Counted from the stretch's first letter, positions 7,377-43,506 are shown. The stretch is DNA of 50,082 bases from Solirubrobacterales bacterium (GCA_035558955.1 DATMBX010000046.1:1-50082); one strand, 5' to 3'. The notes: generated from the sequence alone by a model not told the origin. Translations and numbers: made by a program.

Positions 7377-7381
7377 AAGCT

Positions 7382-10706: not shown

Positions 10707-10715
10707 ATCGCGGAC

Positions 10716-11855: not shown

Positions 11856-11902
11856 GCAAACACTCGGCGGAAGGGCCTCCATATCTCGCGGAGCGTTCGC
11901 AA

Positions 11903-13057: not shown

Positions 13058-13084
13058 GAGCGACTCACCCTAGACAATGGGGGC

Positions 13085-17182: not shown

Positions 17183-17218
17183 TCCGCCCCGCGCCGCCCG
17201 GACCTGTAGAAATCGCGA

Positions 17219-18457: not shown

Positions 18458-18486
18458 TCCTGAGCGGTGCGGGTAGGCTGGGCAGG

Positions 18487-26644: not shown

Positions 26645-26676
26645 GCGGACCGGTGACTTAGGCGGCTGGAGGGCAT

Positions 26677-26720
26677 GAGAAAGGCGGCCCCCCAGCCGCC
26701 TTTCTCGTTCCCCTTTTTTC
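26677..26720 (+). terminator. Intrinsic terminator after purA
   Basis: GAGAAAGGCGGC (26677-26688) and GCCGCCTTTCTC (26695-26706) form a 12-bp perfect stem. It is followed by GTTCCCCTTTTTTCC, which contains a run of six T. It sits between convergent genes. Confidence 0.6.
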
Positions 26721-26784: not shown

Positions 26785-27552
26785 TTAGCCCTTCTGAGTG
26801 CAGGGCACGACGACGCTGCCCTTGACCTTTGTCCCGTCGGAGAATGACGACTCCGCCTGGGCGTAGAAGCGGCCGGTGGCGCAGCTGGCCAGCAGGTAGC
26901 TCTGCTTTCTGCCCTTGTAGGTGAATTTGCGATCGACCGTGAAGTCGTAAGAAAGCACCGAGCCGCTGCCACCGGCGATCGTCGGAACCGTGGCAATCGA
27001 CCGCAGGCCGAATTTTCCGCTGCGCCGTCTGGTGATTCTCACCGTGGTGACGATCGCGGTCGGGGTCGGCACGGCGACGTAGGCGTGAATGAACAGCGTT
27101 GTGGTGCCACCCTTGACGCCGCCGTTGAAGAAGACCAGCGGGCCGGTTGCATTGAACGGATTCGAGTCGGGGAAGGCGACTCTGACCGTCGTGCTGCCTC
27201 TACCGACGATCGCCTTGGAGCAGGCTTTTTTCGCATTGACGTGACTCTGCGCCTGGAGTCTGCCGGAGGTGCAGACGGGCAGGCCCTTGGCGTTGACGGT
27301 TCCGTACTTGTCGGTGTCGACGACAACGGTTCTCAGCGCCGGCGGATGCCCCCCGTCGACGGCGGCGATGGTGCCGTTGATGTCGAGGGCGATCGGCGCC
27401 AGTCTGTTCTTCGGCAACGCTTTCGGCGTGACCTTGCCCTCATAGGTCAAGATCATGTTCCCCGTCCGGACCGTGACCTTCGCGGCGCTGGCGATCCCGG
27501 CGACGGCCAGCATGGCGCCCAGAGCGAGTATCCAAATCAAGTGCTTGCGCAT
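26785..27552 (-). CDS. Secreted four-cysteine protein, paralogue 1 of an unassigned family
   Basis: Signal peptide MRKHLIWILALGAMLAVAGIASA, with AAGGAG upstream of the ATG. It shares motifs with the 37466-38251, 41666-42427 and 42552-43331 genes (GLPVC, C..AIVGRG, FFNG, IAGG.G, YKGRKQSY..A.C, F.DGT, C-terminal C). Confidence 0.7.
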   Translation of the reverse strand: MRKHLIWILALGAMLAVAGIASAAKVTVRTGNMILTYEGKVTPKALPKNRLAPIALDINGTIAAVDGGHPPALRTVVVDTDKYGTVNAKGLPVCTSGRLQAQSHVNAKKACSKAIVGRGSTTVRVAFPDSNPFNATGPLVFFNGGVKGGTTTLFIHAYVAVPTPTAIVTTVRITRRRSGKFGLRSIATVPTIAGGSGSVLSYDFTVDRKFTYKGRKQSYLLASCATGRFYAQAESSFSDGTKVKGSVVVPCTQKG

Positions 27553-27709
27553 GTCCCTATATCTCTCCTTTGCGACCGGCCCCGTTCAGGTGCCCCGGCC
27601 GTCGAAAGCCTTGGTCTAACCCTCCACCGGCAAAAGTACCAGCATCCGTGATCGATGAACCCGGCGATTCACAGAAAAGAGCGGCTTAACAAGCGCGAAA
27701 CCTTTGGAA

Positions 27710-28477
27710 TCACGCCGTTTCCAGCGGCGGGAGGTCGCCGGTTCCGTTCAGAATCGCCCTTCGCACCTTCTCCCGCTCCGCCGCGGCCCCTTCGGCCCCG
27801 AGGAACGGCAGGGTGATCCAGAACATCAGGTCGGGAAGGCGGCTGGGCAGGCGAGCCGCGGCGCCGTGCAGGATCTCGCTGTAGAGAAGCTCGTTGATGC
27901 CGCCGGCGATCGAGAGCGCGGTGATGCTCGGCAGCTCGACCGAGGTCTCCGCCCGGCCCGCGTCGAGAAAGCCGCTGAACTGTCGCAGCGCCGCGTCGCG
28001 CCTGGCGAGGGCCTTGGGGCCCGCGGCGAGCACTTCGACGATCGCGAAGCGTGCCTCGTCGGGGTGTTCGGCCAGGTGTCTGAGCAGGGCCTCCAGCCCG
28101 GCGGCGACTCGATCCGCCCAAGGGGCGCCCGGCTTCGACTCGAAGCCCCCAGCGGTGTCGCCCAGGAGGTTCCCGAGCAGCACGTCGTAGGCGGCGAGGA
28201 AGCAGTCCTCCTTGCTCGAGAACAACTCGTAGAAAGTCTTCCGCGATACCCCGGCGACGCTGATCACGTCGACCACGCGAGTCTCCGGATAGCCGCGCTC
28301 GGAGACGACTTCGATCATCGCCTGGTGGATGCGATTGCGCTGCGATTCGGTGACCGCCTCGCGGGGCAATCCGTGCCGCCCCCGGGGTAGCTGCTCACTC
28401 AACCTGGATGCGCGTCTACCGGAAGCCACATCAAAAACTGTAGAGCAGAAAGCCAAAAATCTCGACCGCCTGCCCAC
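27710..28477 (-). CDS. TetR-family transcriptional regulator
   Basis: HTH region RNRIHQAMIEVVSERGYPETRVVDVISVAGVSRKTFYELFSSKEDCFLAAYD. The start is ambiguous (GTG 28477, GTG 28429 or TTG 28402). Confidence 0.8.
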   Translation of the reverse strand: MGRRSRFLAFCSTVFDVASGRRASRLSEQLPRGRHGLPREAVTESQRNRIHQAMIEVVSERGYPETRVVDVISVAGVSRKTFYELFSSKEDCFLAAYDVLLGNLLGDTAGGFESKPGAPWADRVAAGLEALLRHLAEHPDEARFAIVEVLAAGPKALARRDAALRQFSGFLDAGRAETSVELPSITALSIAGGINELLYSEILHGAAARLPSRLPDLMFWITLPFLGAEGAAAEREKVRRAILNGTGDLPPLETA

Positions 28478-28502
28478 CGCGCCGGGCGGGGAAACAGCCG
28501 GT

Positions 28503-30050
28503 TTACTGACCTTCTTGGGGGAAGACCTGCTGGTAGGTGGTCGGAGCGCCCGATTTGCCGATCGGCGCGAATGGGGCCTGCTGGACGCAGCCGGGGGCCG
28601 GAATCCCGCTGGAGCTGTCCTGGCTGCCGAAGGCGAACTGCTTGAGACGCTCGAAGAAGTTGGTGGCCTGATCTACATCGCCGTCGGTGCGGGCGTTGAA
28701 GTCCGGGTCGTTGGGCGTGTTGGGGTCGAGCGTGGCGACGATCCCCGAGCTGCACTGACGGGTCTCGAAGCTGGGCAGCCCGGCGGCGAGACCTCTGGCG
28801 GCCCCGGGCTGGCTGTAGGCGCTGGCCCGGTTGACGGTGAGCCGATTGGGGTAGGCGGCGAGGGAATCGGGGCCGAGCATCGCCAGCGAGCGCAGATAGT
28901 GGACCTGATCTTCTGTGGGGGTGGGGGCGACAGCGTTGAAGGTCGCGGCGACGTTGGCCATCACCCCGGTGATCTCGCGTCTGTAGAGGTTGAGGCCGGA
29001 GAGGAGTGGGTTGAGGTTGCGCAGGAACGGGTCCAGGGCGCGCAGAAGCGGCGGGAAGTCGTCGCGGAAGAGCTTGCGCAGGGCCGGGAAGGCGCGAGGC
29101 GAGCGGGCGATGACGGGGGCGAAGCCCTCGAAGAAGCCCTTCGCCTGCGGCGCGAAGCGGGAGAAGGCGATCAGGGTCGGCGACAGCTCCTCGGCCGCGG
29201 GGGTGAGCTGGCGGAAGAGCGGGTCTGCGTTGAGGGAGAAGGACTCGAGCCGCCTCAGGGTCAGCCTCGACTCGTCGAGGAAGGTCGGGAAGGCGCGGAA
29301 GAGCGCTTCGATGTCGCGGTTGCGCGCCGCGGCGGTGGTGAAGACGGTGTTGGAGCTCTGAATCAGGTCGTCCAGCTCGTCGTTGCGACCGCGGAAGGCG
29401 CGGAAGGTCACCTCGCCGTTGCGGAAGAGCTGGCGGACGGCGAGCCGTTGGGTGTCGAGCACGCGAAAGAGGCGGTCGAAGGTGGCGAAAGTGGGCTCGA
29501 ACTCTCCGAAGACATTGGAGAAGTCTCCTCCGCGGCCCTGGATCGCGACCGCCGCGTCCTGCATCCAGGTGCGGAAGGCGGCCTGCGTCTCGGGATCGAA
29601 GGTGCGGAAGATCTCGTCGAGCTGGACCGACTCGGCGACGTTGGCTGCGGCGAGGGAGCCTCCGTCGGGAAGCATCTCCCTGTCGCTGCTGGACGGGGTC
29701 AGCTCGACGTAGGTCTCGCCGAGCAGGGTCTTTGTGCGGAGGATGGCGCGCGTCTCGCGCGGGATCGGCGCGTACTGGTCGAGGATGTCGATCGTCGCCA
29801 GTGCCAGTTCCCCGTCGGGCGAGAGGCCGATGCTCTTGACTTTGCCGACCGAGACGCCGGAGATCCGCACGTCTGACTGCTCGGCGAGCTGGGTCGCCTC
29901 GGCGAAGGGCACTTTGATCTCGTAGGTCTTGGCGCGGAACGGCGTCGGCCCGCCGAAGGTGATCCAGAGGAAGAGCAGGATCCCGAAGCACGACAGGGCG
30001 AAGCCCGCAATGACGATGAGTTGTCCTGTGCTGGGGGCTTGCTTGTTCAT
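28503..30050 (-). CDS. Mce/MlaD-family protein (6th of 6)
   Basis: N-terminal TM helix, then an MlaD domain (YEIKVPFAEATQLAEQSDVRISGVSVGKVKSI...AILRTKTLLGETYVELTP) and a long helical C-terminal region. Confidence 0.85.
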   Translation of the reverse strand: MNKQAPSTGQLIVIAGFALSCFGILLFLWITFGGPTPFRAKTYEIKVPFAEATQLAEQSDVRISGVSVGKVKSIGLSPDGELALATIDILDQYAPIPRETRAILRTKTLLGETYVELTPSSSDREMLPDGGSLAAANVAESVQLDEIFRTFDPETQAAFRTWMQDAAVAIQGRGGDFSNVFGEFEPTFATFDRLFRVLDTQRLAVRQLFRNGEVTFRAFRGRNDELDDLIQSSNTVFTTAAARNRDIEALFRAFPTFLDESRLTLRRLESFSLNADPLFRQLTPAAEELSPTLIAFSRFAPQAKGFFEGFAPVIARSPRAFPALRKLFRDDFPPLLRALDPFLRNLNPLLSGLNLYRREITGVMANVAATFNAVAPTPTEDQVHYLRSLAMLGPDSLAAYPNRLTVNRASAYSQPGAARGLAAGLPSFETRQCSSGIVATLDPNTPNDPDFNARTDGDVDQATNFFERLKQFAFGSQDSSSGIPAPGCVQQAPFAPIGKSGAPTTYQQVFPQEGQ

Positions 30051-30051
30051 C

Positions 30052-31461
30052 TCATCTGGCGTAGGTCGGGCCGCAGCCGCCGTCTGGCAGCTCCGGAGGG
30101 GGTGCGATGTCGGGCAGGTCTCTGGCGGTGGGGATGTTGCCCGCCTGCAGGACGGTTCTCAGAAAGGGTCGGGCGCCGGAGAAGCCTCTGGCGAGGATGG
30201 TGCCGTTACAACTGAGCAGAACCAGGGCCCTGCGCACGGGACCGCCGGCGTCCTGCACGTAGTTGGCGGTGACGTTGTGATTGAGCCAGGGCACGTAGAA
30301 GAGGAAGCTCTCCTTGCCCTTCGGCTTGTAGGCGAGGGTGTTGAAGAGCGCGTTGAGCCCCCCCAAGGAGTTGCCGAAGCCCCGCACGGACTTCTCGAAG
30401 TCGGAGGAGCCCTGGCTGAGGTGGGTGAGGACCGGGCGGATCTGGCGGGTGAAGGGGCGGATCTGGTCGCGGATCGGCGCCGTCGTCTCGCGGAAGAAGC
30501 GCGCGGTGGCGTCGAAGGCCGGGCCGAGTGCCTGGGCCTGAGGGATCAGCTTGATCAGGGCCGGCCGCGCGGCGGTGGAGAAGCGATCGGAGCTGGCGAG
30601 GCCCTCGCGGGCGACCCGCAGGGTCGAGGGCAGCTCGACCAGCGACTCCTGCAGCGAAGCCTGCACGGCGGCGAAATCGCCGAGGGCGTCTTTGGAGGAG
30701 GTGACGAAGCGCTCGATCTGGGAGTCGCGGCGCGCCAGTTCGGTGGTGAGCAGGCCGAAGTTGTGGATCACGTCGGCGAGGGCGATACGTCGCTTCGCCA
30801 CCTCGCGGTTGAGGTCGGCGATGTAGTGGGAGAAGGGCTGGAGGCGGCGGAAGGCGGAGGAAAGCTGGCGCCCGCGGCCGCCGATCCCCTGGGCGCCGCC
30901 GGCGAGCAGCAGCTGCAGGTACTGGCGGGTGTCGCCGTCCAGGGTGGCAAGGAAGGCCTCGAAGTTGACGTTCGGCTGGGTCCGGGAAAGTGGGATGTTG
31001 GCGCCGTCCTCGATGTGGCCGGGAGCGGTGCCGGGATCGACCTCGACGATCATGTCGTTGAGGTTCGTTTTCGGCCGCAACAGCAAGGTGGCGTCGGGGT
31101 GGATCAGCTCCAGGTATCTGGGCTCGATGTCGAGGCCGACCACGGCGTGGCCGTCCTCGAGGTCGACCGAGGTGACCTTGCCGACCTGGATGCCGGCGAT
31201 GTCCACCGCCTGGCCCTGACCGGGCGTGACCGCCTGCGCGGTTGAGAACTCACCGGTGATGTGGGCGAAGTCCTGTCCGACGAAGGGCGCCCACGCCGGC
31301 AGCGAGGCTTTCTGCTGGGTGAAGATCCACAGCATCATCGTGATGCCCGCGATGGCGAGGATGACGATCGCGAGCGTGTCTTTGCTGCGCCCGCGCGATT
31401 GGCGGGCAAGCGAAGCGCGAAGGTGCTGCCATCTGCTCACGCCGGGCTCCCTCTCGGTCAT
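30052..31461 (-). CDS. Mce/MlaD-family protein (5th of 6)
   Basis: TM helix plus MlaD domain (VDIAGIQVGKVTSVDLEDGHAVVGLDIEP...LLLRPKTNLNDMIVEVDPG). It ends 1 nt before the next mce gene starts. Confidence 0.85.
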   Translation of the reverse strand: MTEREPGVSRWQHLRASLARQSRGRSKDTLAIVILAIAGITMMLWIFTQQKASLPAWAPFVGQDFAHITGEFSTAQAVTPGQGQAVDIAGIQVGKVTSVDLEDGHAVVGLDIEPRYLELIHPDATLLLRPKTNLNDMIVEVDPGTAPGHIEDGANIPLSRTQPNVNFEAFLATLDGDTRQYLQLLLAGGAQGIGGRGRQLSSAFRRLQPFSHYIADLNREVAKRRIALADVIHNFGLLTTELARRDSQIERFVTSSKDALGDFAAVQASLQESLVELPSTLRVAREGLASSDRFSTAARPALIKLIPQAQALGPAFDATARFFRETTAPIRDQIRPFTRQIRPVLTHLSQGSSDFEKSVRGFGNSLGGLNALFNTLAYKPKGKESFLFYVPWLNHNVTANYVQDAGGPVRRALVLLSCNGTILARGFSGARPFLRTVLQAGNIPTARDLPDIAPPPELPDGGCGPTYAR

Positions 31462-32960
31462 GGGACCACCGCCGGGTCGGCTGGGCCGGGCTGGCCCAGA
31501 GGGCCGTTGACGTCAGGGACGGGCTGCTTGTAGCAGCGCGCGCCGGGCTTCTTCGGCGGCCTGCCGCCGAGCTGCGGCTGGACGCCGAGCGGGGCCTCGA
31601 TCGTGTTGGAGAAGAAAGCCTTATCCGTGACGAGATTGCCGTCGGGGCTGGGCGTCTGGACCAGCTGCGGGCCGCCGCCGATCTGGGTGCGGAGGTAGGG
31701 GCCGTTGCCGTCGAAGTTCTGGCTCTCGCCGGCGAAATTGACGAGGGCGTAGAAGAACTCGCGCGAGCTGGGCCCGGTGCTGAAAGCGTCGTTGATCGTC
31801 TGGTCGCCGGTCGGTACCAGCACCCGGCTGCTGCAGAGGCTGAGCTGGTTTAGCTGGGGCAGGGCATTCGCCTTGCCCGCCTGGGCGGCGCCGGCGAGGC
31901 CCGGCGTCGACTTGGCCAGCAGCCTGGCCGTTCCCCCCGCTTCCTTGCCGGAGAGCAGCGGGCGAGCCTGGCGCAGCCAGGGGCCGGAAGCGGCGATCAG
32001 GTCCGGCAGCTGCTCGATGGCCGGCGTCATCTCGATCGCGTAGGCGCGCAGCGGCGGCAGGGTGCGGTTGAGGCTGACCATCGAGGCGCGGGTGGTCTGC
32101 AGGAAGGGGGCGAAACGGTTGATCGTGACCGCGAGATTGGCCGACTGGGCGGCGAGCGCGCCGGTGAAGGTATTGAAGTTGACGATCAGCCCCTGCAGGT
32201 CTGCCTCGCTGTGGGCGAAGGCGGCGAAGGCGCGGCCGGCGCTGGCCACGAGCCGGGGAAGATCGTCGGGTTGGGTGCCGAGGAAGGCGTTGGTCACCTG
32301 GGCGCTGTAACGGCCGGCGGGACCGCCGTATTTGAAGGCGCCGTTGAGCGCCTCGGCGGCCGTCTTGCCCCTCACCTCGGGCTCCTGGCTGACGTCCTCA
32401 GCCGCGGTCGGCTCATGCGTGAGGGCGGTGCCGTAGCTCTGCAGGAAGCGGGCGAGGTCGGCGCGGACGGGCGCCTGCAGCGCGGTGATCACCTCGTCGA
32501 GCTGGACCGAGGTGGAGGTATGGCTGACCGGAATGGTGTCGCCGCTGTCCATCTCCGGCGCGCTGGGGCTGCCGGGGTCGAGGTCGATGAAGAAATTCCC
32601 CTCGAGGAAGATCCGCGGGCGGATCTGGGCGAAGGCGTCGGTGTGAATCGGCCGGCCCGGATCGCTGACGGTGAAGGTGACCTCGGTTGCGTTGCCGTCG
32701 CGACCGACCTCGGTGACCTGGCCGACGTCGACTCCGGCGATCCGGATCGGCGATTTGGTCGCGATGTTGACGCCGTTGGCGAAGGTCGCCTTGAGCTGGT
32801 AGCCGCGGCTGGTGAAGGGGACGTGTTTGGTGAAGGCGAGGTATGGGCCGAGGGTGAAGACGATCAGGAAGAGGACCGCGATCGCGGCGTTGCTGGGCCG
32901 CCATCTGATGCGGCCGGTCGGCTGCTGGGCCCTGATGTCGCGCTCCGGCAGCCGGCTCAT
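31458..32960 (-). CDS. Mce/MlaD-family protein (4th of 6)
   Basis: TM helix plus MlaD domain (YQLKATFANGVNIATKSPIRIAGVDVGQVTEV...QIRPRIFLEGNFFIDLDPG). 4-nt overlaps with both neighbouring genes. Confidence 0.85.
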   Translation of the reverse strand: MSRLPERDIRAQQPTGRIRWRPSNAAIAVLFLIVFTLGPYLAFTKHVPFTSRGYQLKATFANGVNIATKSPIRIAGVDVGQVTEVGRDGNATEVTFTVSDPGRPIHTDAFAQIRPRIFLEGNFFIDLDPGSPSAPEMDSGDTIPVSHTSTSVQLDEVITALQAPVRADLARFLQSYGTALTHEPTAAEDVSQEPEVRGKTAAEALNGAFKYGGPAGRYSAQVTNAFLGTQPDDLPRLVASAGRAFAAFAHSEADLQGLIVNFNTFTGALAAQSANLAVTINRFAPFLQTTRASMVSLNRTLPPLRAYAIEMTPAIEQLPDLIAASGPWLRQARPLLSGKEAGGTARLLAKSTPGLAGAAQAGKANALPQLNQLSLCSSRVLVPTGDQTINDAFSTGPSSREFFYALVNFAGESQNFDGNGPYLRTQIGGGPQLVQTPSPDGNLVTDKAFFSNTIEAPLGVQPQLGGRPPKKPGARCYKQPVPDVNGPLGQPGPADPAVVP

Positions 32961-34366
32961 CCGGACTCGTTTCTGGTCGTCGTTCCCCAGTGATCGGCGG
33001 CGTTGCCGATCACTGTCTGTCCGCGCGCGTACTTCTCATTTCCGGCTTCACAGATCTTGGGCTGCCCAGGAGAGGCGGTGTACGGGTAGGGATTGAAGTG
33101 GAGGTGGTTGGCTCGCTCGGGGCCGTTGGCGGGAGCGGAGGCGGGTGAGCCCTCGTTGTTGGCGCCGGTGGTAGGCACGAGGGAGATGAAGTTGAGCCAG
33201 TTTCCCGAGCCGTTGCCCTCGCTGGTCGCATTGGCGACGTTCTTGAAGGCGAGGGTGAGGTAGTTGCAGGTGGCCTGTGCTGGGGCGATGAACTTGATTC
33301 CCGGCTCCAGCGTCTTGTTGAAGTCGATCAGGAGGTCGAGCCCGTTGAAGACGCCTGGGGAGGACTGAAAGGCGAGCAGGGCGTCGGCGGTGGGGACGAG
33401 CTGATCGTTGAAGACCGGCGAGGCGTTCAGCACCGGGATACCGGCGCGCAGCGCGGCGGCGATCGTCGGCGAGGTGTCGGCGAGAGCCTTGGTGCCGGGC
33501 CGCAATGCGGTGAAGAACTCGGCGGAGTGGTCGAGGAAGGGCCGGATCACGGGGAACGTCTCGATCGCCGTCTGCTCGGTGGGCGGGCTTTTGACGATCG
33601 TCTCCTGGATGAACGGCCGGGCGACGCGGGCGAAGGCGGCGAAGGTGACGTCGAGGCCGACGAAGAGGCTGGCCTGGGCCTCGGCGACGGGAGCGACGAC
33701 TGCGTTCAGCGCCCCCAGCGCTCTCCAGAACTCGCCGAACCGGGTCGAAGGGGCGGCGAGGTCGGCGAGCACCGGCTGGGAGCTCTCGACCAGGTCGCGC
33801 AGGGCGCCGAAGGCCGCGTTCAGCTGCGGGCCGCGGCCGGCGAGCGCGTTGCCGAACCCGGCCTGGTTCTGGCGGATCGCGGTCCGCGTCTCCTCGTCGA
33901 ACATGCTGAAGAACTCGTCGATGTCGATCGGCTCCGGCCTGGCGGCGGCGAGCGGGATCGTGTCGCCGGGGGCGAAGCCCTCGCTGGAATCGCCGGGGGT
34001 GAGCTGCACGTATTTGAGCCCGAGCGCCGATTTGGGACGGATCATCAGGGTCGAGTCGATCGGCAGCGGCTCCACCTTCTGGTCGAGGCGCAGGTCCAGC
34101 TCCGCGGCGACGCGGCCGTCGCCGAGCTGGACCGGCTTGACCCCGCGGACGATGCCGACCCGGTTGCCGCCGATCCGGATCTCGTTGTTCCTGACCAAAG
34201 CGTCGCCGTCGGGGACCAGCGCCTTGAGGTTGTAGGTGGAGACGAACGGCAGGCCGTTGTTGGCGTTGTAGGCGAGGAAGACGGCGACGATGACGACGAG
34301 CACGGTGACCGCCCCGACCAGGACCGGGCTGCTCGCGACTCCCTGGATTCCGCTGCGATTCCTCAT
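32957..34366 (-). CDS. Mce/MlaD-family protein (3rd of 6)
   Basis: TM helix plus MlaD domain (YNLKALVPDGDALVRNNEIRIGGNRVGIVRGV...MIRPKSALGLKYVQLTPG). 4-nt overlaps with both neighbouring genes. Confidence 0.85.
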   Translation of the reverse strand: MRNRSGIQGVASSPVLVGAVTVLVVIVAVFLAYNANNGLPFVSTYNLKALVPDGDALVRNNEIRIGGNRVGIVRGVKPVQLGDGRVAAELDLRLDQKVEPLPIDSTLMIRPKSALGLKYVQLTPGDSSEGFAPGDTIPLAAARPEPIDIDEFFSMFDEETRTAIRQNQAGFGNALAGRGPQLNAAFGALRDLVESSQPVLADLAAPSTRFGEFWRALGALNAVVAPVAEAQASLFVGLDVTFAAFARVARPFIQETIVKSPPTEQTAIETFPVIRPFLDHSAEFFTALRPGTKALADTSPTIAAALRAGIPVLNASPVFNDQLVPTADALLAFQSSPGVFNGLDLLIDFNKTLEPGIKFIAPAQATCNYLTLAFKNVANATSEGNGSGNWLNFISLVPTTGANNEGSPASAPANGPERANHLHFNPYPYTASPGQPKICEAGNEKYARGQTVIGNAADHWGTTTRNESG

Positions 34367-35880: not shown

Positions 35881-37277
35881 GGTCCGGGGGGCACGTCGGC
35901 CGGGTCGCAGGTGGACGAGGGAGCGCCGCCGGCGATCGGCGGGTCGACGAACGGATTGGAGCCGTCGGGCGCCGGCTGGGTGGCGCCACCCGGGCAGCGG
36001 CGGAAGGTCTGGGGCGGGTTGAAGGCGTCGTACTGCTGGCTGGTGGGAATCGGGTCGAGGACCCCGGTGCCGGAGTTGTAGGAGAAAAGGTTGAGGTCGG
36101 ACGGCTGGACGCGAATGTAATGACCGTTGGCGTCGTAGTAGGCCGCTACCTGGCCGAGCTTGGCGAAGCCGTTGAAGATGTCCGGCGTGTAGGCGCGGAA
36201 GAGGTCGAGGGTCGGCTGGAAGTCGGCGATCGCCTGCTCGGCGTGCGGGAAGGCGGTGGAGGTGCGGTCCTGCACGGTGGGGAGGATCGCGAAGAGCTCG
36301 CCGGTGTCGTTGTGCGGGCCCGGCCGGCGCATGGTCAGGCGCAGGTTCTTGAAGACCGGGACCGCTTTGGAGAGAACCGGGCGGAGGTCGGCGAGGAACG
36401 GCGCCAGGTCCTTGGTCGCCGGCTTGGCGGCGTCGACGAAGGTGTCGAGATCGTCGAGCGCGGCGCGGAGGTTGACGAAGGTGGTGTTGGTCTGCCGGAA
36501 GACCGGGGGCAGCAGATGCAGGGTGCGGCTGAAGGCGGCGTTCTGGCTGGCGATCGCGCCGAAGGCGGCGTTGGCGTTGGCGATCGCGCTGGAGAGCTCC
36601 TCGCCGCGCGAGGCGATCGCCGTCGCCAGTTTGCTGGAGCTGACCACGAAGCGCTCGAACAGCCGCTGGTCGGAGTTGAGCTCGCCGAAGAAGGCGCGGG
36701 CGCGATTGAGGCCGGGAGCGAAGTATTTGAAGGTCTGGCTCGCCTCGGGCCCGCGGTCCACGTAGATGCCCGCGTTGCCCTTGATGAAATCGCTGAGGCC
36801 CCTCCGCACCGGCGCCGGGAAGGTGTTGAAGAGCTGGTCGATGTCGATCGGGGTCGTGGTGTCGGCGAGCCCGAGGGTTCCGCCGTCTTCCAGCGGCGGG
36901 TTGCTGTTGGGGCCGGGGCTGACGGAGACGTAGTGGTTGGCGACGCCGGAGAGGGAGGTTGCGCGAACGATCGCCGTCGTCCCCTCGTGCAACTGCTGCT
37001 CGACGGTGACGTTGACCTGGGCGAGGTTTTCATCGGTCAGCTCGATGCTGTCCACGGTGCCGACCGCCTGGCCGCCGATCAGTACCTGGTTGCCTTTGAC
37101 GAGCTGGCTGGCGTTCTGGAAGAGGAGGGCGTACTTGTGGCTGCCGTTGCCGCCGAAGACGATGTAGGCGAGGGCCAGAACCACCAGGGCGAGAGCCGCG
37201 ATCGCCGCGATTCGGGCGGGGGCGATTCTCCGGCCGGACGCCGGACTTCTCTCCTCGCCTAAGGGATTGGCAGCCAC
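35877..37277 (-). CDS. Mce/MlaD-family protein (1st of 6)
   Basis: GTG start, TM helix (IAAIAALALVVLALAYIVF) and MlaD domain (YALLFQNASQLVKGNQVLIGGQAVGTVDSIEL...IVRATSLSGVANHYVSVSPG). Confidence 0.85.
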   Translation of the reverse strand: MAANPLGEERSPASGRRIAPARIAAIAALALVVLALAYIVFGGNGSHKYALLFQNASQLVKGNQVLIGGQAVGTVDSIELTDENLAQVNVTVEQQLHEGTTAIVRATSLSGVANHYVSVSPGPNSNPPLEDGGTLGLADTTTPIDIDQLFNTFPAPVRRGLSDFIKGNAGIYVDRGPEASQTFKYFAPGLNRARAFFGELNSDQRLFERFVVSSSKLATAIASRGEELSSAIANANAAFGAIASQNAAFSRTLHLLPPVFRQTNTTFVNLRAALDDLDTFVDAAKPATKDLAPFLADLRPVLSKAVPVFKNLRLTMRRPGPHNDTGELFAILPTVQDRTSTAFPHAEQAIADFQPTLDLFRAYTPDIFNGFAKLGQVAAYYDANGHYIRVQPSDLNLFSYNSGTGVLDPIPTSQQYDAFNPPQTFRRCPGGATQPAPDGSNPFVDPPIAGGAPSSTCDPADVPPGP

Positions 37278-37465
37278 AAGTCGTCGCTTACCGTCCTCCG
37301 GCCTCCAACCCGGGTGGAAACGGCGAGCGAATCGTATCCGAGGCGTCCCCGGGCAAGCGCGTGCCCAGGCGGGACTTAACTGGAATTCAACGCGCTACTC
37401 TGAGGGTGCGGATCGGTTATGGAACCGGGAGGCGCTTTGGCAAATCGAACGGAGGAGTGAAGCCA

Positions 37466-38251
37466 ATGCGCAAACGTCTGAGCTTGACCCTTGCCCTGGT
37501 GGTAGGTGTAGCCGGCGCGGTCGTCGCCTCGACCGCGCTCGCAAAGTGGGGCCCGACGGTTACCGGGTCCGATGGCAACACCCATGCGATCAACGTTCAG
37601 GTCGCTCCAAAGAAGCTTTCTAAATCCAAACCGACCCCCGCCACCCTGAAAGTGGCGACGAGAACGGGCACGACGACTGCCCCCAACGGCATCCCCTCTC
37701 CAGCCGTGAGGGCGGTGGTCGACTTCGACAGAAACCTGAAGCTGTTCACAAAAGGCCTGTCGACCTGCAGCGCCGACAGACTCCAGAACGTCTCGACCGA
37801 CGCTGCTATCGCGGCTTGCGGCAAAGCGAGAATCGGAAGCGGAGCCGCTACGGCCTTGCTCGCCGTCGGCGCCCAGGTCTTCACGCAGAACCAGACGATC
37901 ACGGCCTTCAACGGCGTGCCCCAGGGAGGCAAGCCCTCGGTCCTGCTGCATACCTACGGGACCTCCCCGGTCCAGGTGACGCTGGTGCTGAACGGCGTGA
38001 TCAGCAACTACAACAAACAGGGCTTCGGCCCGCGGCTGGACATCGACATCCCGCTTATCGCGGGCGGCACCGGAGCCCTGACGTCCTTCTCTGCCTCGAT
38101 CAACAGGAAGTTCAACTACAAAGGCAAGAAGCGCAGCTTCGTCACCGCGATGTGTAGAAAGTCGCCGCTGAGAGCCCGCGGCGCCTTCACCTTCAAAGAC
38201 GGGGTGACATTGACGTCGCCCTCGACCCACGCCTGTACAAAGAAGAAATAA
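37466..38251 (+). CDS. Secreted four-cysteine protein, paralogue 2
   Basis: The ATG at 37466 is preceded by GGAGGA. Signal peptide MRKRLSLTLALVVGVAGAVVASTALA. Family motifs VVDFDR, GLSTC, C..ARIGSG, AFNG, IAGGTG, YKGKKRSF..A.C, FTFKDGV and a C-terminal C. Confidence 0.7.
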   Translation: MRKRLSLTLALVVGVAGAVVASTALAKWGPTVTGSDGNTHAINVQVAPKKLSKSKPTPATLKVATRTGTTTAPNGIPSPAVRAVVDFDRNLKLFTKGLSTCSADRLQNVSTDAAIAACGKARIGSGAATALLAVGAQVFTQNQTITAFNGVPQGGKPSVLLHTYGTSPVQVTLVLNGVISNYNKQGFGPRLDIDIPLIAGGTGALTSFSASINRKFNYKGKKRSFVTAMCRKSPLRARGAFTFKDGVTLTSPSTHACTKKK

Positions 38252-38254
38252 CGC

Positions 38255-41200
38255 TCAGACGTTGACTTTGGGCATAGCCCGATCCAGGCGTCTGGGTAGC
38301 CACCAGACCCTGTTGCCCACGAGCAGCATCAGCGCCGGCAGGAGGACGATGCGGACGACCGTGGCGTCCAGCAGCACCGCGATGGTCAGCCCAACGCCGA
38401 GTTGGCTGACCGTCGCGATCGGCGCGCCCGCAAAGGCGACGAAGACGGCCATCATGATCGCCGCGGCGCCGGTGATCACCCGCGCGGTTTTCTCCAACCC
38501 GAACTCGATCGCGGCGGCGTTGTCTCCGTATTGATCGAAGTGCTCCCGCATCCGCACCAACAGGAAGACGGCGTAGTCGATCGAGAGGCCGAAGACGACG
38601 CCGAAGATCATCGTCGCGCCGACCGCATCCACGTATTCCCGCCCGCCCAACGGCCAACCCTCCGGCACGTAGCCGAGCAGGGTGAGGATGCCGAAGGCGA
38701 CGCCGACCGTGGCCAGGTTGAGGCCGACCGCGATCGCGGCAAGCGGCAGGGCGCGAAGGACGAGGACCAGAACGAGGAAGGTGGCCAGGGTGATAGCCGC
38801 GACGACAAGTGGGAATCGATCCCTGGCTACGCGGCTGTAGGTATTGAGAGTCGGCGGCCCGCCGGCGACGCCCGCTTCGACGCCCGCTTCCCGGCCCAGC
38901 GCCGCGGCGTCAGATTCGAGGCGTCTGTTCATCGCGATCGAACCGTCGGTGTTGAAGGTGTAGCGCGAGATCACAAGCAGGGTCGCCGCCTGGCCGCCGT
39001 TGTCGAGGTCGATCGCGCGGGTTGCTTGCTCACGCAGTGCCGGTGAGGCCCCGTCGAGGGCCGAGAGGACGAAGTAGCCTGAGTCGAAGAGGCCAGGCGT
39101 GGAGCGCCGGACGCGGTCGGTCTGCCGTGTCAGGTTGTCTCCGGTGGAGACGATGCGGACGGTGGCGCGTCGCAACCCGGACTGCAATGGGTAGGAGCGA
39201 ACGTAGGCCCGGGCCAGGTTCTCCTGAAGCGCGGAGGTCCCTTCGCCGAGCTGGGCGATCCCGCCGGCGAGGGCGGTGGCCGCCGTAGCGGCGCGCAGGA
39301 GCTGGTCGTTGAGGTCGCCGGACACCGCGGCGAATCTGGCGGCGCCGGCGGCCAGCCTTCTCCCCGCCGATTGGATCTGGTTGAGCCCGTCGGAGAGTTG
39401 TATCGCCGTCGAGGAAAGCCGGTTGAGGCTGCCGATCGCCGTTACCAGCCAGCCGGTGACCTGCTCGGCCTCCTCGGCATCGTCGCTGAGTCGCTCTTGG
39501 AGCGCCGTCAACTCCGCCGGCAGGCCGGCGTAGCCCTCCGCGTAAGGCTGGCCGGTGGCGGGGTTGGTTCCGCTGATCGCCGCCATGGCTTGGCGCACCG
39601 CGGTAAGAGCGGCATCGTAATTGGGATCGGTTTTGCCGACGGTCATGCCGTCCAGCTGTTGAAGGGCCGTTCTCAGCTGGGCTTCGGCATCCTGGGCGGG
39701 CGCGATCAGCTGTGGCAGCTTCGAATGAGCGTCCTGGTTGAGGGATTTCTGCAGATTGCGCGAGCGCCGCAGGGCGTTGTGTCTGAGATTGGGGATCAGG
39801 TCGCGAATGCCGATCTTGAGAACGAGCCCGCCAAGCGCGGCCCGTCGCTCGGCGGCGGCAAGCTGGCGGGTGACATCGGCAAAGCGATCGACGGCGGCAA
39901 CGGTGCGCCCGATGCCCTCTCCCGCATCGGAGAGGCCCTCGGCAAGCAGGACGGCGCCGTCTTCGGCCTGCCCGGTGCCGTCGTCCAGCAGCCCGGCGCC
40001 GGCAGCCGCCTGCGAAAGGCCGTTGCGAAGCAGAGCGACGCCACCAGTTATGCGACCCAGGACTCTGCCCAGCCTGCCGACGCCGGCCAGAGGGCCGCTT
40101 TCGCCTGAAGCGAGCAGCCCGTTGCCGAATCTGCGCAGCGGAGCGACCGCTCTCGAGACCTGACCGGGCCCGACAACTGCAAGGACGCCGGGATAGTCGG
40201 CGATCCGTCTCTGCCAGCGATCGAGGGCGTCGAGGCGATCCGAATCGGTGATCGCACCCTCGTCGGTGGCGGCGACGATCACGAAGGGAGCGTCGTAACC
40301 GGGGCCGATCGCGTCCGTGATCAGCTCGTAGTCCTTGCGAATGGGATCGTCTGTAGGAAGCTGGCCGGGGCTGAGCGGGCCGGTTCTGAGGGCCAGCGCG
40401 GGCGCGGCGAGGAAGAGCACCACGGCGCCGATCAATGCCGCGACAGGAGCGGGGCGGCGGAGGGCGGCGTGGACGACGGTCATCAGGCGAGAGCGACCGT
40501 TCGCCGCTGCGCCGATCCGCCAGCGATCCAGGTTCGGGCCGAGCAGAGTGAGGACGGCGGGCGCGGCGACGACCCCGACGACCACGCTGAGGGCGACGAC
40601 CAGCGCCACGGTCGCCGCCAATGACACGAGCAGGGCGCCCGGGACGACGAACATCGCCACGATCATCGAGAGCATCAGGGTGCTGCCGGCGAAAACCGTC
40701 GTGCGGCCGGCTGTGCCGCGCGTCGCGGCTGCGGCTGTGAGCGGATCGGCGCCGGCAGCCAATTCCTCGCGGAAGCGCGAGACCATCAGCAGCGCATAGT
40801 CGACGCCCAGCGCCAAGCCCATCATCGTGCAGACGGTGAGGGCGAAGGCATCGATGTCGAACCAGTTCGTCAGGATGACCAGCAGGCCGCGGGAGCTGAA
40901 CACCGTGATCGCACCGAAGGCAAGGGGGATCATTGCCGCGATCGGCGATCGGAAGACGAGCAGCAGGACGACCAGGAGGATCGGCAGCGCGATCAGCTCG
41001 GCGCGCTCGCTGGCGCTGATCGATTCGTCCTGTATCTGGCGAGATATCGTCGCGAAGCCGGTCTGGGTGGCGGTGACCGGCGGGTGGACCGTCTCCTCCA
41101 GGGTGCTGTTCAGGTAGGGAACCGTCTCCTTGACGGCCTCGGCGACCGGGACGTGGAAGTCGACGATGATCAGCGCTCGTCGGGGCCCTGGCCTCAAGCG

Positions 41201-41578
41201 GCCGACGGAGCCCCGATCCCACGGGGACAGCGTCGTCACGCGCGGGTTCTCACGGCGCAGGGTGCGGATCAGCTCCGGTCCTTGGCGATCGATCGCCGCC
41301 GCCGGTCCCTGCAGGAGAATCGGGAAGGTGGCGCTGTCGCCGAAGTGCTCTCGCAGCAGCTCGTTGGCGCGCGAGGCCGAGGTGCCGGAGATGTCCAGCG
41401 TGGTCGGGCTCAGTTTCTCGTCGAGGCCGAGCCCCAGAACGCCCAGGAAGACGACGACGATGCCGGACAGCACCAGGACCCGCCGCGGATGCCGCAACAT
41501 CGAGGAGTGGCGCCGCTCGCCGTCTTCGCCGGCACGCGCGCGCTCCTTCCCCTCCCTGCTCCTCCTCAGCGACGGCAC
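38255..41578 (-). CDS. MMPL-family (RND superfamily) membrane transporter with an enlarged second extracytoplasmic domain
   Basis: Two 6-TM bundles with MMPL signatures (GVDYALLMVSRFREE and GLSIDYAVFLLVRMREH) and the N-terminal motif LREHFGDS. The start is either 41578 or ATG 41500 (MLRHPRR). Confidence 0.85.
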   Translation of the reverse strand: MPSLRRSREGKERARAGEDGERRHSSMLRHPRRVLVLSGIVVVFLGVLGLGLDEKLSPTTLDISGTSASRANELLREHFGDSATFPILLQGPAAAIDRQGPELIRTLRRENPRVTTLSPWDRGSVGRLRPGPRRALIIVDFHVPVAEAVKETVPYLNSTLEETVHPPVTATQTGFATISRQIQDESISASERAELIALPILLVVLLLVFRSPIAAMIPLAFGAITVFSSRGLLVILTNWFDIDAFALTVCTMMGLALGVDYALLMVSRFREELAAGADPLTAAAATRGTAGRTTVFAGSTLMLSMIVAMFVVPGALLVSLAATVALVVALSVVVGVVAAPAVLTLLGPNLDRWRIGAAANGRSRLMTVVHAALRRPAPVAALIGAVVLFLAAPALALRTGPLSPGQLPTDDPIRKDYELITDAIGPGYDAPFVIVAATDEGAITDSDRLDALDRWQRRIADYPGVLAVVGPGQVSRAVAPLRRFGNGLLASGESGPLAGVGRLGRVLGRITGGVALLRNGLSQAAAGAGLLDDGTGQAEDGAVLLAEGLSDAGEGIGRTVAAVDRFADVTRQLAAAERRAALGGLVLKIGIRDLIPNLRHNALRRSRNLQKSLNQDAHSKLPQLIAPAQDAEAQLRTALQQLDGMTVGKTDPNYDAALTAVRQAMAAISGTNPATGQPYAEGYAGLPAELTALQERLSDDAEEAEQVTGWLVTAIGSLNRLSSTAIQLSDGLNQIQSAGRRLAAGAARFAAVSGDLNDQLLRAATAATALAGGIAQLGEGTSALQENLARAYVRSYPLQSGLRRATVRIVSTGDNLTRQTDRVRRSTPGLFDSGYFVLSALDGASPALREQATRAIDLDNGGQAATLLVISRYTFNTDGSIAMNRRLESDAAALGREAGVEAGVAGGPPTLNTYSRVARDRFPLVVAAITLATFLVLVLVLRALPLAAIAVGLNLATVGVAFGILTLLGYVPEGWPLGGREYVDAVGATMIFGVVFGLSIDYAVFLLVRMREHFDQYGDNAAAIEFGLEKTARVITGAAAIMMAVFVAFAGAPIATVSQLGVGLTIAVLLDATVVRIVLLPALMLLVGNRVWWLPRRLDRAMPKVNV

Positions 41579-41665
41579 GCGTGTAGTTTGGCGGTCAGCC
41601 GGACGGAGAGCGTTCGAAGATGTGGAAGGCTTTGTTAAGCCGTCCGCCGGGTGACGGCGTGGAGA

Positions 41666-42427
41666 CTAGCGCCGGATCGAGCAGGTTCTCGCAAAGGTGC
41701 CGCTGAGGCGGGTGCCGTCTCTGAAGGTGAACGTGCCGAATGCCTGCAGGCGACCGTTCTCGCAGCGGGCGTTGACGTAGCTCAGCTTCTTCCCTTTGTA
41801 GGTCCATCTGCGCTCGACTCTGATCGAGCCGGATTTCGGAATGCCGTAGCCGCCGGCGATTCTCGGGATCTCCGTCTCGACGCGATAGCCGTAGAGGCCT
41901 TTGCGGATTCTTCTGATCTCGATCGGGACGATGAAGGTCGTCGGACCACCCACCTCGAGATAGGCGTGGGCGAAGAGCGTCGGGTTGCCGCTCTTACGCG
42001 GGCCGTTGAAGAGGGTGATCGGCGAAGACGCCGGGATCGGGTTCTGGTCGGGGAACTTGACTATCGCCGTGCCGCGACCCTTGCCGACGATCGCGTCACG
42101 ACAGTTGGCTCGGGCGCGCGGGACGTCGGTCGCGATCAATCTTCCTCTCGTGCAGACCTGAAGCCCGCGCGTCTCGACGTGACCGTGCCGGTCGAAGTCG
42201 AAGATGATTCTGTGCAGAACCGGTGGCAACTCACCGGAGATGGTCGAGATTCTGCCGCCGCCGTGGATCTCGATCGGAGCGTCTCTGTCGCGAGGCAACG
42301 ACCTCGGGCTGAAGCCCCCGTCGCCGATGATCAGGATGTCGCCGGCCCGCAGCCGGAGGGCGCTCGCGGTGCCCACCAACGCGAACAGCGCCAGCAGCAC
42401 TCCCACCAAGATCGTCCCCTTGCGCAC
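41666..42427 (-). CDS. Secreted four-cysteine protein, paralogue 3
   Basis: The GTG start is preceded by GGAGGAGG. Signal peptide ...VGVLLALFALVGTASA. Family motifs IFDFDR, GLQVC, C.DAIVGKG, LFNG, IAGGYG, YKGKKLSY..A.C, FTFRDGT and a C-terminal C. It lies upstream of, and on the same strand as, the MMPL gene. Confidence 0.7.
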   Translation of the reverse strand: MRKGTILVGVLLALFALVGTASALRLRAGDILIIGDGGFSPRSLPRDRDAPIEIHGGGRISTISGELPPVLHRIIFDFDRHGHVETRGLQVCTRGRLIATDVPRARANCRDAIVGKGRGTAIVKFPDQNPIPASSPITLFNGPRKSGNPTLFAHAYLEVGGPTTFIVPIEIRRIRKGLYGYRVETEIPRIAGGYGIPKSGSIRVERRWTYKGKKLSYVNARCENGRLQAFGTFTFRDGTRLSGTFARTCSIRR

Positions 42428-42551
42428 AGCGATCCCCTCCTCCGCTTTGAACTACCTGGAGGCATGATAGGGCTCAGGCCAAGCAGGGGGTTAAGCGGGC
42501 AAGAAGCAGCCGGCCCATGGCACGCGGGGCGCTAGCCTGAGTCCCGGAGGA

Positions 42552-43331
42552 ATGAAGACGACGGCGACAAGCCTGCTGATGGCGATCGCGCTCTGCGCGA
42601 TCGCGGCGCTGCCGATCGCCGGGGCGAACGGCGCGCTGGTGCAGATCGGGGATCTGGTCCTGGAAGCGGACGGGGGGTTCACGCCGCAAAAGCTCCCGCG
42701 AAGGACGTTTGCCCCGATCGATTTCAAGGGCCACGCGGATCTCTCGACCCGAAGCGGCGCGATGCCGCCGGCGCTGCAACAGGCTGTGATCGACTTCGAC
42801 CGCGATGGGCGGATGAGCACGGGTGGGCTGCCAAGTTGCTCTCCCGATCGAGTCGCGGACGCAAGCCCGGAGGTGGCGCGGCAGGCCTGCGCCGCCGCGA
42901 TCGTCGGCACCGGGCGCATAGGGGCTGTGGTCGCCTTGGCGGGCCAACCTCCGGAAGCCACCGGCTCACTGCTGACACTGTTCAACGGGCCACCCCAAGA
43001 CGGCCACGCGACCGTCGTCGCTCATGCCCAGATCACCAACCCCGTACTGCGGACCTTCGCGATCCTTATCCCCGTCGAGCGCCGGCGCGGGCGCTTCCGC
43101 TACCGGGCGACGCTGAACGTCCCGCCGATCGTTCCCGAGGGCATCGGCACAGGCGCCCTCACTCACGTCGACGCCAAGATCGGCCGCCGCTATAGGGCCA
43201 ACGGCAAGCGCCGCAGCTACGTTTCCGCCCGCTGCAGCGACAACGTCCTCGAGACCCACGGCCGCTTCACCTTCAACGACGGCACCGTGATCGACGGCTC
43301 TGTGATGAAGGGCTGCTTCGCCCTGCGGTAG
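42552..43331 (+). CDS. Secreted four-cysteine protein, paralogue 4
   Basis: Signal peptide ...LLMAIALCAIAALPIAGANG. Family motifs VIDFDR, GLPSC, C.AAIVGTG, LFNG, GKRRSY..A.C, FTFNDGT and a C-terminal C. It is divergent from paralogue 3. Confidence 0.7.
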   Translation: MKTTATSLLMAIALCAIAALPIAGANGALVQIGDLVLEADGGFTPQKLPRRTFAPIDFKGHADLSTRSGAMPPALQQAVIDFDRDGRMSTGGLPSCSPDRVADASPEVARQACAAAIVGTGRIGAVVALAGQPPEATGSLLTLFNGPPQDGHATVVAHAQITNPVLRTFAILIPVERRRGRFRYRATLNVPPIVPEGIGTGALTHVDAKIGRRYRANGKRRSYVSARCSDNVLETHGRFTFNDGTVIDGSVMKGCFALR

Positions 43332-43362: not shown

Positions 43363-43435
43363 GGGCCGTTAGCTCAGTTGGTAGAGCAGGAGACTCTTAA
43401 TCTCAAGGTCGAAGGTTCGAACCCTTCACGGCCCA
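43363..43435 (+). tRNA. tRNA-Lys (anticodon CTT)
   Basis: Cloverleaf read by hand: acceptor GGGCCGT/ACGGCCC, D-arm GCTC-AGTTGGTA-GAGC, anticodon loop CTCTTAA, T-arm GAAGG-TTCGAAC-CCTTC, discriminator A. CCA is not encoded. Confidence 0.9.
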
Positions 43436-43464
43436 TCGCAGCCGGGTTGCCGCCTCTTCGCGAT

Positions 43465-43506
43465 TAGACGATTAATCGTCTATACGAATAGACGTATGAT
43501 CGTCTA
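43465..43506. repeat. Two adjacent TAGACG-N6-CGTCTA inverted repeats in an AT-rich spacer (operator-like or bidirectional terminator-like)
   Basis: TAGACGATTAATCGTCTA (43465-43482) is an 18-bp perfect palindrome. TAGACGTATGATCGTCTA (43489-43506) has perfect 6-bp arms. The second repeat overlaps the stop codon of the 43504-44295 gene. Confidence 0.6.

Follow-up and report, generated by a model that had tools for sequence, protein, structure and literature searches.

Why should four related exported proteins be encoded around the genes for an MMPL-family transporter and six Mce proteins? The question is raised by a 50,082-bp stretch of DNA from a Solirubrobacterales bacterium (GCA_035558955.1, DATMBX010000046.1:1-50082), which has a G+C content of 68% and which we call the window. 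A sequence-only reading of the window had pointed out four genes for secreted four-cysteine proteins of no recognisable family, had judged that their positions did not look random, and had suggested that they might be accessory or substrate-handling proteins of the Mce and/or MMPL lipid transporters. All four open reading frames (ORFs) are present at the coordinates and on the strands that were described, and we term them par1 (26785..27552, minus strand, 255 aa), par2 (37466..38251, plus strand, 261 aa), par3 (41666..42427, minus strand, 253 aa, with a GTG start) and par4 (42552..43331, plus strand, 259 aa). Comparison with related genomes shows that these copies belong to orthologous groups fixed in a conserved envelope cluster, composed of family genes, the MMPL gene, mceA-F, and then family genes plus tetR. 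Placement around the MMPL gene is not chance. For the function of the proteins we tentatively favour an accessory role in transport, which is weighed below against three other explanations.

Reading along the plus strand, the order is purA, a hairpin, then on the minus strand par1, a gene for a TetR-family regulator (27710..28477; Pfam TetR_N, E 4e-9) and six mce genes (28503..37277), followed by par2 on the plus strand, the MMPL gene (38255..41578) and par3 on the minus strand, and par4 on the plus strand. The positions of the four genes relative to mce, tetR and MMPL are as the sequence-only reading had given them, and we have measured the spacings. par1 is the last gene of an mce-tetR-par1 string, in which 25 nt separate mceF from tetR and 157 nt separate tetR from par1. 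par2 lies between mceA, from which it diverges across a spacer of 188 nt (37278-37465), and the MMPL gene, with which it converges to leave 3 nt between the stop codons. par3 stands directly 5' of the MMPL gene and on its strand, 87 nt from the GTG start of the MMPL ORF and 165 nt from the probable ATG at 41500. par4 is divergent from par3 across 124 nt.

The four genes are indeed paralogues. Their pairwise identities of 31-41% extend over essentially the full length, with E values from 1e-29 to 1e-66 (BLASTP and tblastn), and a tblastn search of the window finds no copy beyond these four. The four-way alignment has 38 invariant columns. The four cysteines that had been called invariant are among them, and across 131 aligned, diverse members of the family they are conserved at 95-100%. 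The last of them is at the same distance from the C-terminus, 4 residues, in each of par1-par4, and par4 has a fifth cysteine, located in its signal peptide. The list of shared motifs given by the sequence-only reading was essentially right, except that two were drawn too strictly: Y-[KR]-x-x-G-[KR][KR]-x-S describes only the 42552 copy, the other three reading Y-K-G-[KR]-K-x-S-[YF], and F-[TS]-F-x-DG holds in three of the four copies.

The arrangement recurs in related genomes (loci designated by L numbers). Family genes abut the MMPL gene in 11 of the 11 clusters that show the MMPL end, namely the window, L001, L002, L056, L065, L071, L090-92, L095 and L096, and among these 11 the copy number, the orientation and the presence of par2 vary. 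L090-92 were found by way of mceA orthologues and independently of the family; each of the three is bracketed, with family pairs at both ends. In each, two family genes diverge from the MMPL gene, mceA-F lies 121-126 nt downstream of it, and two or three family genes are convergent with mceF; in L090 a tetR gene comes after the family genes at that end. L095 and L096, retrieved through par2 orthologues, retain the mce hexad, par2, the MMPL gene and three family genes, with outer flanks that differ and that lack tatC. A metagenome scan with par1 gave 5 loci. Two metagenome contigs, L087 and L088, contribute the mceF end of the cluster, where they carry purA, tetR, two or three family genes and then mce genes. 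Given the bracketing of all three loci retrieved by mceA, and its survival in L095 and L096 with other outer flanks, the earlier judgement that the positions are non-random holds.

The copies also keep to their slots. Genes like par1 follow tetR at the mceF end in L087, L088 and L090, and occur at that end in L091 and L092. Orthologues of par2 occupy the same slot in L002, L056, L071, L095 and L096. Each of the 11 clusters with a visible MMPL end has a par3-like gene abutting the MMPL gene. Members of the par4 clade stand beside the MMPL-adjacent copy in L001, L002, L065, L071, L090-92, L095 and L096, and L056 has a second family gene in the par4 position. The unit of tetR followed by a family gene recurs in L087, L088, L090, L056 and L038, which represent several independent contexts. 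In a neighbour-joining tree of 163 family genes the context follows the clade: without exception, par2-clade genes stand between mceA and the MMPL gene and genes of the par4 and true par3 clades stand beside the MMPL gene, whereas the par1 clade is found mostly at the mceF end. Genes of tandem arrays fall into clades of their own, each array position having a different one. The slot-specific orthologous groups persist down to ~50% identity.

A par3-like gene is also found directly 5' of an MMPL gene of the same subfamily in nine further species. The gap between the two is 1-24 nt in three of the nine loci, the three examined; in these a TetR gene is in front of or opposite the pair, and a cytochrome P450 gene is nearby in two of the three. 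None of the nine has mce genes within 10 kb, and the link between the family and MMPL is therefore more general than that between MMPL and Mce. The MMPL genes of these loci form one clade and their family genes form one clade, so that the pair has stayed or travelled together.

The family genes and the MMPL gene have a short sequence element in common. The hexamer CTTAAC (GTTAAG on the other strand) occurs four times in the 50,082 bp, once in each of the intergenic regions beside the paralogues, which total 634 bp. The copy at 27685..27690 (plus strand) is in the tetR-par1 spacer, within a context AAAAGAGCGGCTTAACA that is conserved in L087, L088 and L091. The copy at 37375..37380 (plus strand) is 91 nt 5' of par2 and is kept before the par2 orthologues of L002, L071, L095 and L096; the hexamer of the MMPL-mceA spacer persists in genomes without par2 (L065 and L090-92). 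The third, at 41634..41639 (minus strand), is between par3 and the MMPL gene, 134 nt 5' of the MMPL ATG. In seven genomes CTTAAC is found ~131-134 nt 5' of the MMPL gene with a conserved context that differs from the one at family genes, and the hexamer plus a downstream CAAACTAC(C/A)... context precedes the MMPL gene in L001, L002, L091, L092, L095 and L096. The fourth copy, at 42490..42495 (minus strand), is at the centre of the par3/par4 spacer and is followed by TATCAT, a GGAGGAGG ribosome-binding site and the GTG start of par3. It fits the context seen across the family, which is CTTAAC-N20-21-TATCNT, ~30 nt, GGGAGG and the start codon. As judged from sequence, CTTAAC-N20-21-TATCNT looks like a promoter; a sigma-70 consensus scan of 26.5-44.4 kb finds no promoter.

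There are 84 copies of CTTAAC in 1.74 Mb of related loci (for example at ~9085 in L006 and ~9020 in L022), and 40 of the 84 fall within 220 nt 5' of a family gene, a space that makes up 2.3% of the sequence. The orientation is the same in 35 of 42 gene-motif pairs, with a sharp peak at 60-80 nt from the start codon. The hexamer was spotted post hoc by comparison of the four intergenic regions. A ranking of all hexamers in 136 non-redundant upstream windows, which is independent of that comparison, puts CTTAAC first, with 21 observed occurrences against 0.91 expected, and its overlapping neighbours next. CTTAAC was not seen before the tight family-MMPL operons or before solitary family copies, and it therefore marks a subset of the family, not all of it.

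We have examined what the proteins themselves reveal. In a heuristic scan the N-termini of all four have a basic n-region, a hydrophobic core and a small-x-small site, with predicted cleavage at ASA/AK, ALA/KW, ASA/LR and AGA/NG. They and 341 of 366 relatives qualify as having the features of a Sec-type (type I) signal peptide. The lipobox [LVI][ASTVI][GAS]C is present in none of the four and in only 4 of the 366 relatives, and the scan finds neither a twin-arginine motif nor a second hydrophobic segment in par1-par4. A cleavable-looking signal peptide with no lipobox had been read from the sequence of each protein, and the heuristic scan bears this out. Export by the Tat system was dropped as an option in view of the missing RR motif, although tatC adjoins the region, and anchoring as a lipoprotein or by sortase was dropped given that there is no lipobox and no LPXTG. 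The mature proteins of the family have ~230 aa. The four in the window have isoelectric points (pI) of 9.9-10.9, and 99% of the 366 relatives have a pI above 8.5.

AlphaFold2 models made with the family alignment are confident and all-beta, in agreement with the beta-rich fold that had been supposed. The model of par3 has a mean predicted local distance difference test (pLDDT) score of 90.2 and a predicted template modelling (pTM) score of 0.85, and that of par2 has values of 88.2 and 0.82. Both have the same order of ~17 strands with one or two short helices, and in both a short helical segment lies between the first two cysteines. To judge from the spacing of the cysteines and the secondary structure of the models, there are probably two local disulfides with a stabilising effect, one (C91-C108) around the helix and the other (C221-C248) across the last hairpin (par3 numbering). 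An internal duplication, with two homologous halves of two cysteines each, was considered and dropped, the N-terminal half aligning with the C-terminal half at E 0.21 in hhalign. Apart from the cysteines, the columns that are at least 85% conserved in the 131 members are mostly Gly or Pro, with a few Ala and a single Leu, Asp, Phe, Asn and Ser. The polar residues that reach this level family-wide are only Asn141 of the FNG motif (94%), Asp79 (86%) and Ser216. These form no recognisable catalytic set, and we dropped the idea of an enzyme. One His and one Asp are invariant inside the two best-sampled orthologous groups. Because the well-conserved residues are the four cysteines and mostly Gly and Pro, with few others, the conservation is more in keeping with scaffolding or binding than with catalysis.

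The family has no match to a named domain, and the sequence-only reading had likewise been unable to place it in one. Scans of par1-par4 against Pfam-A and NCBIfam give nothing above the curated cut-offs, and a Pfam scan of 86 aligned members gives no consistent family; weak matches to Phage_OMP in 5 of the 86 (best E 0.0025) were treated as noise. The family profile finds nothing significant among PDB sequences (best E 0.1, inhibin). Foldseek finds no match at E <= 0.001 for the par3 and par2 models in the PDB or for one model in BFVD, and a statement that the fold is new is limited to the PDB and BFVD, which were the structure libraries compared. The best template modelling (TM) score normalised to the query is 0.34, for weak resemblances to generic beta-sandwiches and barrels such as TTHA1873, arrestin-like proteins, MSCRAMM and nitrobindin (TM <= 0.34). 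Literature searches on TTHA1873, on Solirubrobacter with MmpL and on mce operons with MmpL returned nothing bearing on the family. Within the libraries searched here (Pfam, NCBIfam, PDB and BFVD) the family is undescribed.

Its named relatives all come from metagenome-assembled genomes of Solirubrobacterales or Conexibacteraceae; among named sources, the family is restricted to Solirubrobacterales or relatives. Five proteins of 463-503 aa (P0245, P0266, P0291, P0333 and P0334) have two matched stretches and are apparent tandem fusions of two copies, which mirror the tandem arrays of family genes. Another, P0390 (L093, 8001-9842), has 613 aa with traces of NHL repeats, and the family domain is its C-terminal 230 aa. 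Its gene is part of a co-directional run of very large genes, for proteins of 1362, 1097, 582, 939, 613 and 683 aa, and no Pfam match was found in this run.

We turn to the transporters beside which the window's copies lie. The MMPL-family RND transporter has ~1,081 aa (Pfam MMPL, E 1.6e-57), and it matches generic MMPL/HAE models only. Its transmembrane halves resemble MmpL3 (E 5e-51), and MmpL3 structures align to residues ~159-327 and 865-1079 only. Residues ~440-865 are an insert of ~425 aa, rich in Ala, Leu, Gly and Gln, which lies in the second extracytoplasmic region and has no counterpart in MmpL3; it might form a helical stalk outside the membrane, comparable to the MmpL4/MmpL5 coiled coil. 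The six mce genes are consecutive, encode proteins of 466-515 aa and all have the Pfam MlaD domain. In this they are like the canonical actinobacterial Mce operon, which is yrbEAB-mceABCDEF with MceG (PMC1810536, PMC13492129). They differ from it in having the MMPL gene in the upstream slot and no permease or ATPase gene in the sequence scanned around them. No yrbE/MlaE permease gene is found among the window ORFs scanned, and no PF02405 (MlaE-type) gene within 10 kb in the five related loci with precomputed Pfam annotation (L090-92, L095 and L096). No ABC ATPase match reaches the Pfam cut-off in the window ORFs scanned, where the sole ABC_tran match (E 0.002) is to an ORF for an IstB-like ATPase. 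The MMPL gene, co-directional with mceA in L090-92, holds the slot of yrbEAB, and in the lineage of the window par2 has been inserted between the two genes on the opposite strand. This yrbE-less Mce hexad with MMPL in the upstream slot spans 28503-41578 of the window, 5100-10097 of L065 and ~6600-18850 of L090-L092. MmpL goes unmentioned in a review of Mce systems from 2026 (PMC13492129).

From the gene context we propose, with rather less than even confidence, that the four proteins of the window are exported to assist the MMPL transporter, as accessory subunits or in handing over its substrate, and that they possibly serve the Mce hexad too. They would act outside the membrane, either as an accessory or adaptor subunit or as a carrier of a hydrophobic substrate to or from the MMPL transporter, and the Mce hexad might be served likewise. 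Since they lack any anchor in lipid or membrane, it would be their positive charge that keeps them at the anionic surface of membrane or wall. Expression would be from CTTAAC-bearing promoters, the element being one that also precedes the MMPL gene, so that the proteins would be co-regulated with MMPL; TetR-family regulators are encoded alongside. The proteins would presumably make physical contact with the MMPL or Mce proteins, and the substrate would presumably be a lipid. They would thus be analogous, but not homologous, to MmpS, to carriers of the LpqN/LprG kind or to Mam/Omam.

The likeness to MmpS is in the position of the gene. MmpL4 and MmpL5 share their operons with MmpS adaptors (PMC12122801, PMC12501195), and par3 and its counterparts in the nine further loci are directly 5' of an MMPL gene on the same strand; this likeness is one of position only. 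Both have a beta-rich extracytoplasmic part, and the partner MMPL protein here, like MmpL4 and MmpL5, has a large extra extracytoplasmic insert (PMC12122801, PMC12501195). The differences are several. There is no match to PF05423, even at E <= 1, in an hmmscan of par1-par4 and 86 family members, and no MmpS chain is among the top 50 Foldseek matches listed for either model. The family proteins have 253-261 aa, or ~230 aa when mature, compared with ~140 aa for MmpS. Their N-terminus resembles a cleavable signal peptide, with small-x-small after the core, rather than a membrane anchor, and each genome carries many family genes, the majority of which are not close to MMPL.

Genes for Mam proteins adjoin mce operons, and Omam proteins, which are encoded as orphans at other sites, nonetheless act on Mce systems (PMC1810536, PMC13492129). 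The family is like Mas/Mam/Omam in being encoded beside mce hexads, typically in pairs whose first and second members are in separate clades, in having a sizeable fraction in isolated pairs elsewhere, and in being lineage-specific and fast-diverging (PMC1810536, PMC13492129). As an analogy of paired genes, position-specific clades and orphan copies, the parallel with Mam/Omam is close. In Mas proteins a membrane helix lies 140-180 aa from the C-terminus and precedes an alpha4-beta4 domain (PMC1810536), whereas the family is all-beta, with ~17 strands, a signal peptide, four cysteines and no later hydrophobic segment. Moreover the mceF-end copies are mostly convergent with mce and transcribed from tetR: par1 is co-directional with mce, with tetR between, but the copies in L087, L088 and L090-92 are convergent. 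The family is also tied more tightly to the MMPL gene than to mce.

A third comparison is with the mycobacterial LpqN/LpqT/Mtc28 and LprG/LppX proteins, exported beta-rich paralogues that are thought to pass lipids to or from MmpL-type exporters. Our family is likewise paralogous, exported and beta-rich. Most of the LprG/LppX/LpqN proteins are lipobox lipoproteins, in contrast to the rarity of the lipobox here, and the family has none of the Pfam or PDB fold matches that would relate it to LpqN or LprG. The family is not a member of MmpS, LpqN/LprG or Mam/Omam, whose defining features of sequence, topology and fold it lacks.

The idea of accessory proteins thus gains from the recurrence of the bracketing, from the nine loci in which a family gene precedes an MMPL gene and from the common CTTAAC element. 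Several observations weigh against it. The proteins have no anchor, and no lipid-binding fold was recognised, the best PDB matches having TM <= 0.34. The orientation of the mceF-end copies makes the part of the proposal that gave them a role like that of Mam/Mas for the Mce proteins a weak one. The conserved order reaches the housekeeping genes tatC, ubiE and purA, so some of it may be plain inherited synteny. Most of the family genes sampled, moreover, are not near an MMPL or mce gene. We collected 80 loci with a par3-group profile and scanned them with the family hidden Markov model and with the Mce, MMPL, TetR and TatC proteins of the window; the sample is skewed to par3-like genes, and orthologous loci in it are not independent observations. 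In this sample 93 of 151 family genes (62%) adjoin another family gene, in arrays of two or three, and 16 (11%) abut an MMPL gene. An MMPL gene is within 10 kb of 36 (24%) and an mce gene within 10 kb of 15 (10%), and 35 have no scored feature (family gene, MMPL, mce or tetR) nearby. About three-quarters of the sampled genes are in arrays or solitary, with no MMPL or mce gene closer than 10 kb, and the neighbours of the arrays are unrelated or housekeeping genes, for example those for methyltransferases, short-chain dehydrogenases and FtsH. Since copies 57-68% identical to par3 occur in unrelated neighbourhoods, proximity to MMPL is unnecessary for the persistence of the family. The sequence-only reading had held that numerous scattered paralogues with no enrichment near mce or mmpL genes would speak against it, and with 62% of the sampled genes beside other family genes this is in part what we find.

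The scatter of the family lends weight to another explanation, which we regard as somewhat unlikely: that these are general basic envelope or surface proteins with a beta-sandwich fold, wall-associated and structural or adhesive, which are scattered through the genome under a common regulon, and that the MMPL-Mce cluster is one among several envelope loci to have received copies, with no direct partnership with the transporters. The family is a large one: searching with a profile of par1-par4 gives 2,465 clusters at 50% identity (E <= 1e-3), of which 599 are found at E <= 1e-30. Tandem arrays of 2-3 genes in position-specific clades, unlinked to transporters, dominate the sample, and it is at such arrays that the promoter-like CTTAAC is commonest. 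The high pI of nearly all members, conserved residues that are only structural, weak fold matches to Ig-like adhesin/pilin, arrestin and transglutaminase beta-sandwiches, and the use of the domain as the C-terminal module of the NHL-repeat protein, in an operon of very large uncharacterised proteins, all point the same way. What this explanation leaves unaccounted for is the association with MMPL. The spacing of 1-24 nt in three of the nine further species would have no reason, nor would the abutment of the MMPL gene in all 11 clusters, which has come through inversions, changes in copy number and different outer flanks. The same is true of a rare hexamer 5' of the MMPL gene.

If the association is real it might yet be historical. 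On this account, which is unlikely, the stretch from tatC to purA is stable in the clade, and intergenic hot spots within it gather members of a fast-duplicating family. Synteny does reach ubiE, a polyprenyl synthase gene, tatA/tatC and purA in many loci. The numbers of family genes, 1-3 at each end with par2 in some lineages only, fit repeated local duplication and loss, and next to par4 there are a tRNA-Lys gene and then AT-rich perfect palindromes. Yet L095 and L096 keep the core of mce hexad, par2, MMPL gene and three family genes within different outer flanks, the nine family-MMPL loci are in another neighbourhood altogether, and the slot-specific orthologous groups hold down to ~50% identity. 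Both this account and the next are less likely than that of general envelope proteins. Secreted effectors (antimicrobial, toxin-like or hydrolytic), with the MMPL transporter for self-protection or unrelated, are very unlikely: the proteins are small, basic, multi-copy and predicted to be secreted and disulfide-bonded, and they have the well-conserved Asn141 and the group-specific invariant His and Asp, but no polar residue of catalytic type besides Asn141 and Asp79 reaches 85% family-wide, no enzyme or toxin family is matched in Pfam or NCBIfam, no immunity-like partner gene was seen, and the weak fold matches to neprosin and transglutaminase have TM <= 0.21.

Some features of the neighbourhood may be recorded here. 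Between the convergent purA and par1 genes, at 26675..26708, is a G+C-rich hairpin with a 14-bp stem and T-runs on both sides, which is probably a two-way terminator closing the minus-strand unit. Beyond par4 come tRNA-Lys, a conserved gene of no assigned family, tatC, ubiE and cytochrome bc genes. The tRNA-Lys(CTT) gene is directly after par4 and is followed by two overlapping AT-rich perfect palindromes (tRNA gene and palindromes together 43363-43494), TAGACGATTAATCGTCTA at 43465-43482 and CGTCTATACGAATAGACG at 43477-43494, which could be an integration site or a protein-binding site. Rfam finds only two tRNAs over the whole window. The product of the conserved gene (43504-44295, minus strand) has 263 aa, a single membrane helix at its N-terminus and a long stretch rich in Ala, and it matches nothing in Pfam or NCBIfam; most syntenic loci (L001, L002, L056, L065, L071 and L090-92) keep the gene in this place, with family genes on one side and tatC on the other. 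Elsewhere in the window, 6346-19950 is dense in envelope-biogenesis genes, for a YkuD L,D-transpeptidase, a CAAX protease, a class A penicillin-binding protein, a GT87 glycosyltransferase and a membrane protein like lysyl-phosphatidylglycerol synthase, together with a TreT-like gene beside the OtsA (GT20) trehalose-synthesis gene. Six of the related loci also share a conserved self-complementary element, AGGGGTTCCACTTAACTTTTTCGG...CCGAAAAAGTACAAGACGTTCCACCCCTACCGG, which has no relation to the family genes and could act as a structured RNA or as a terminator. Its positions are L009 ~4835-4950, L013 ~6965, L018 ~6905, L043 ~6310, L056 ~19767 (minus strand) and L068 ~6290.

Returning to the accessory role that we favour, the layout of the cluster admits a more far-reaching version of it. 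The Mce heterohexamer might be coupled to the proton-driven MMPL (RND) transporter, with its long extracytoplasmic insert, instead of to YrbE/MceG, and the basic four-cysteine proteins might be dedicated soluble subunits of this composite machine, hitherto undescribed, that are co-regulated through CTTAAC. We consider this improbable. If it were true, MMPL would be a new class of membrane partner for MCE proteins, beside MlaE/YrbE, PqiA and LetA, and the four-cysteine family would be a new fold of transporter accessory protein. Because the arrangement of MMPL and mceA-F is conserved with no yrbE genes, one may ask where the Mce proteins of this cluster obtain their energy.

Lipids leave and enter through the actinobacterial envelope mainly by way of MMPL and Mce systems, and both rely on accessory proteins that are poorly understood. 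The order of family genes, MMPL, Mce hexad and family genes, the CTTAAC element specific to the family, and a Mce hexad with no yrbE are new leads, and the element would permit a regulon to be defined. They concern an abundant and barely studied soil lineage, the Solirubrobacterales of the Actinomycetota, in which comparative evidence now ties some members of this family to the MMPL transporter.

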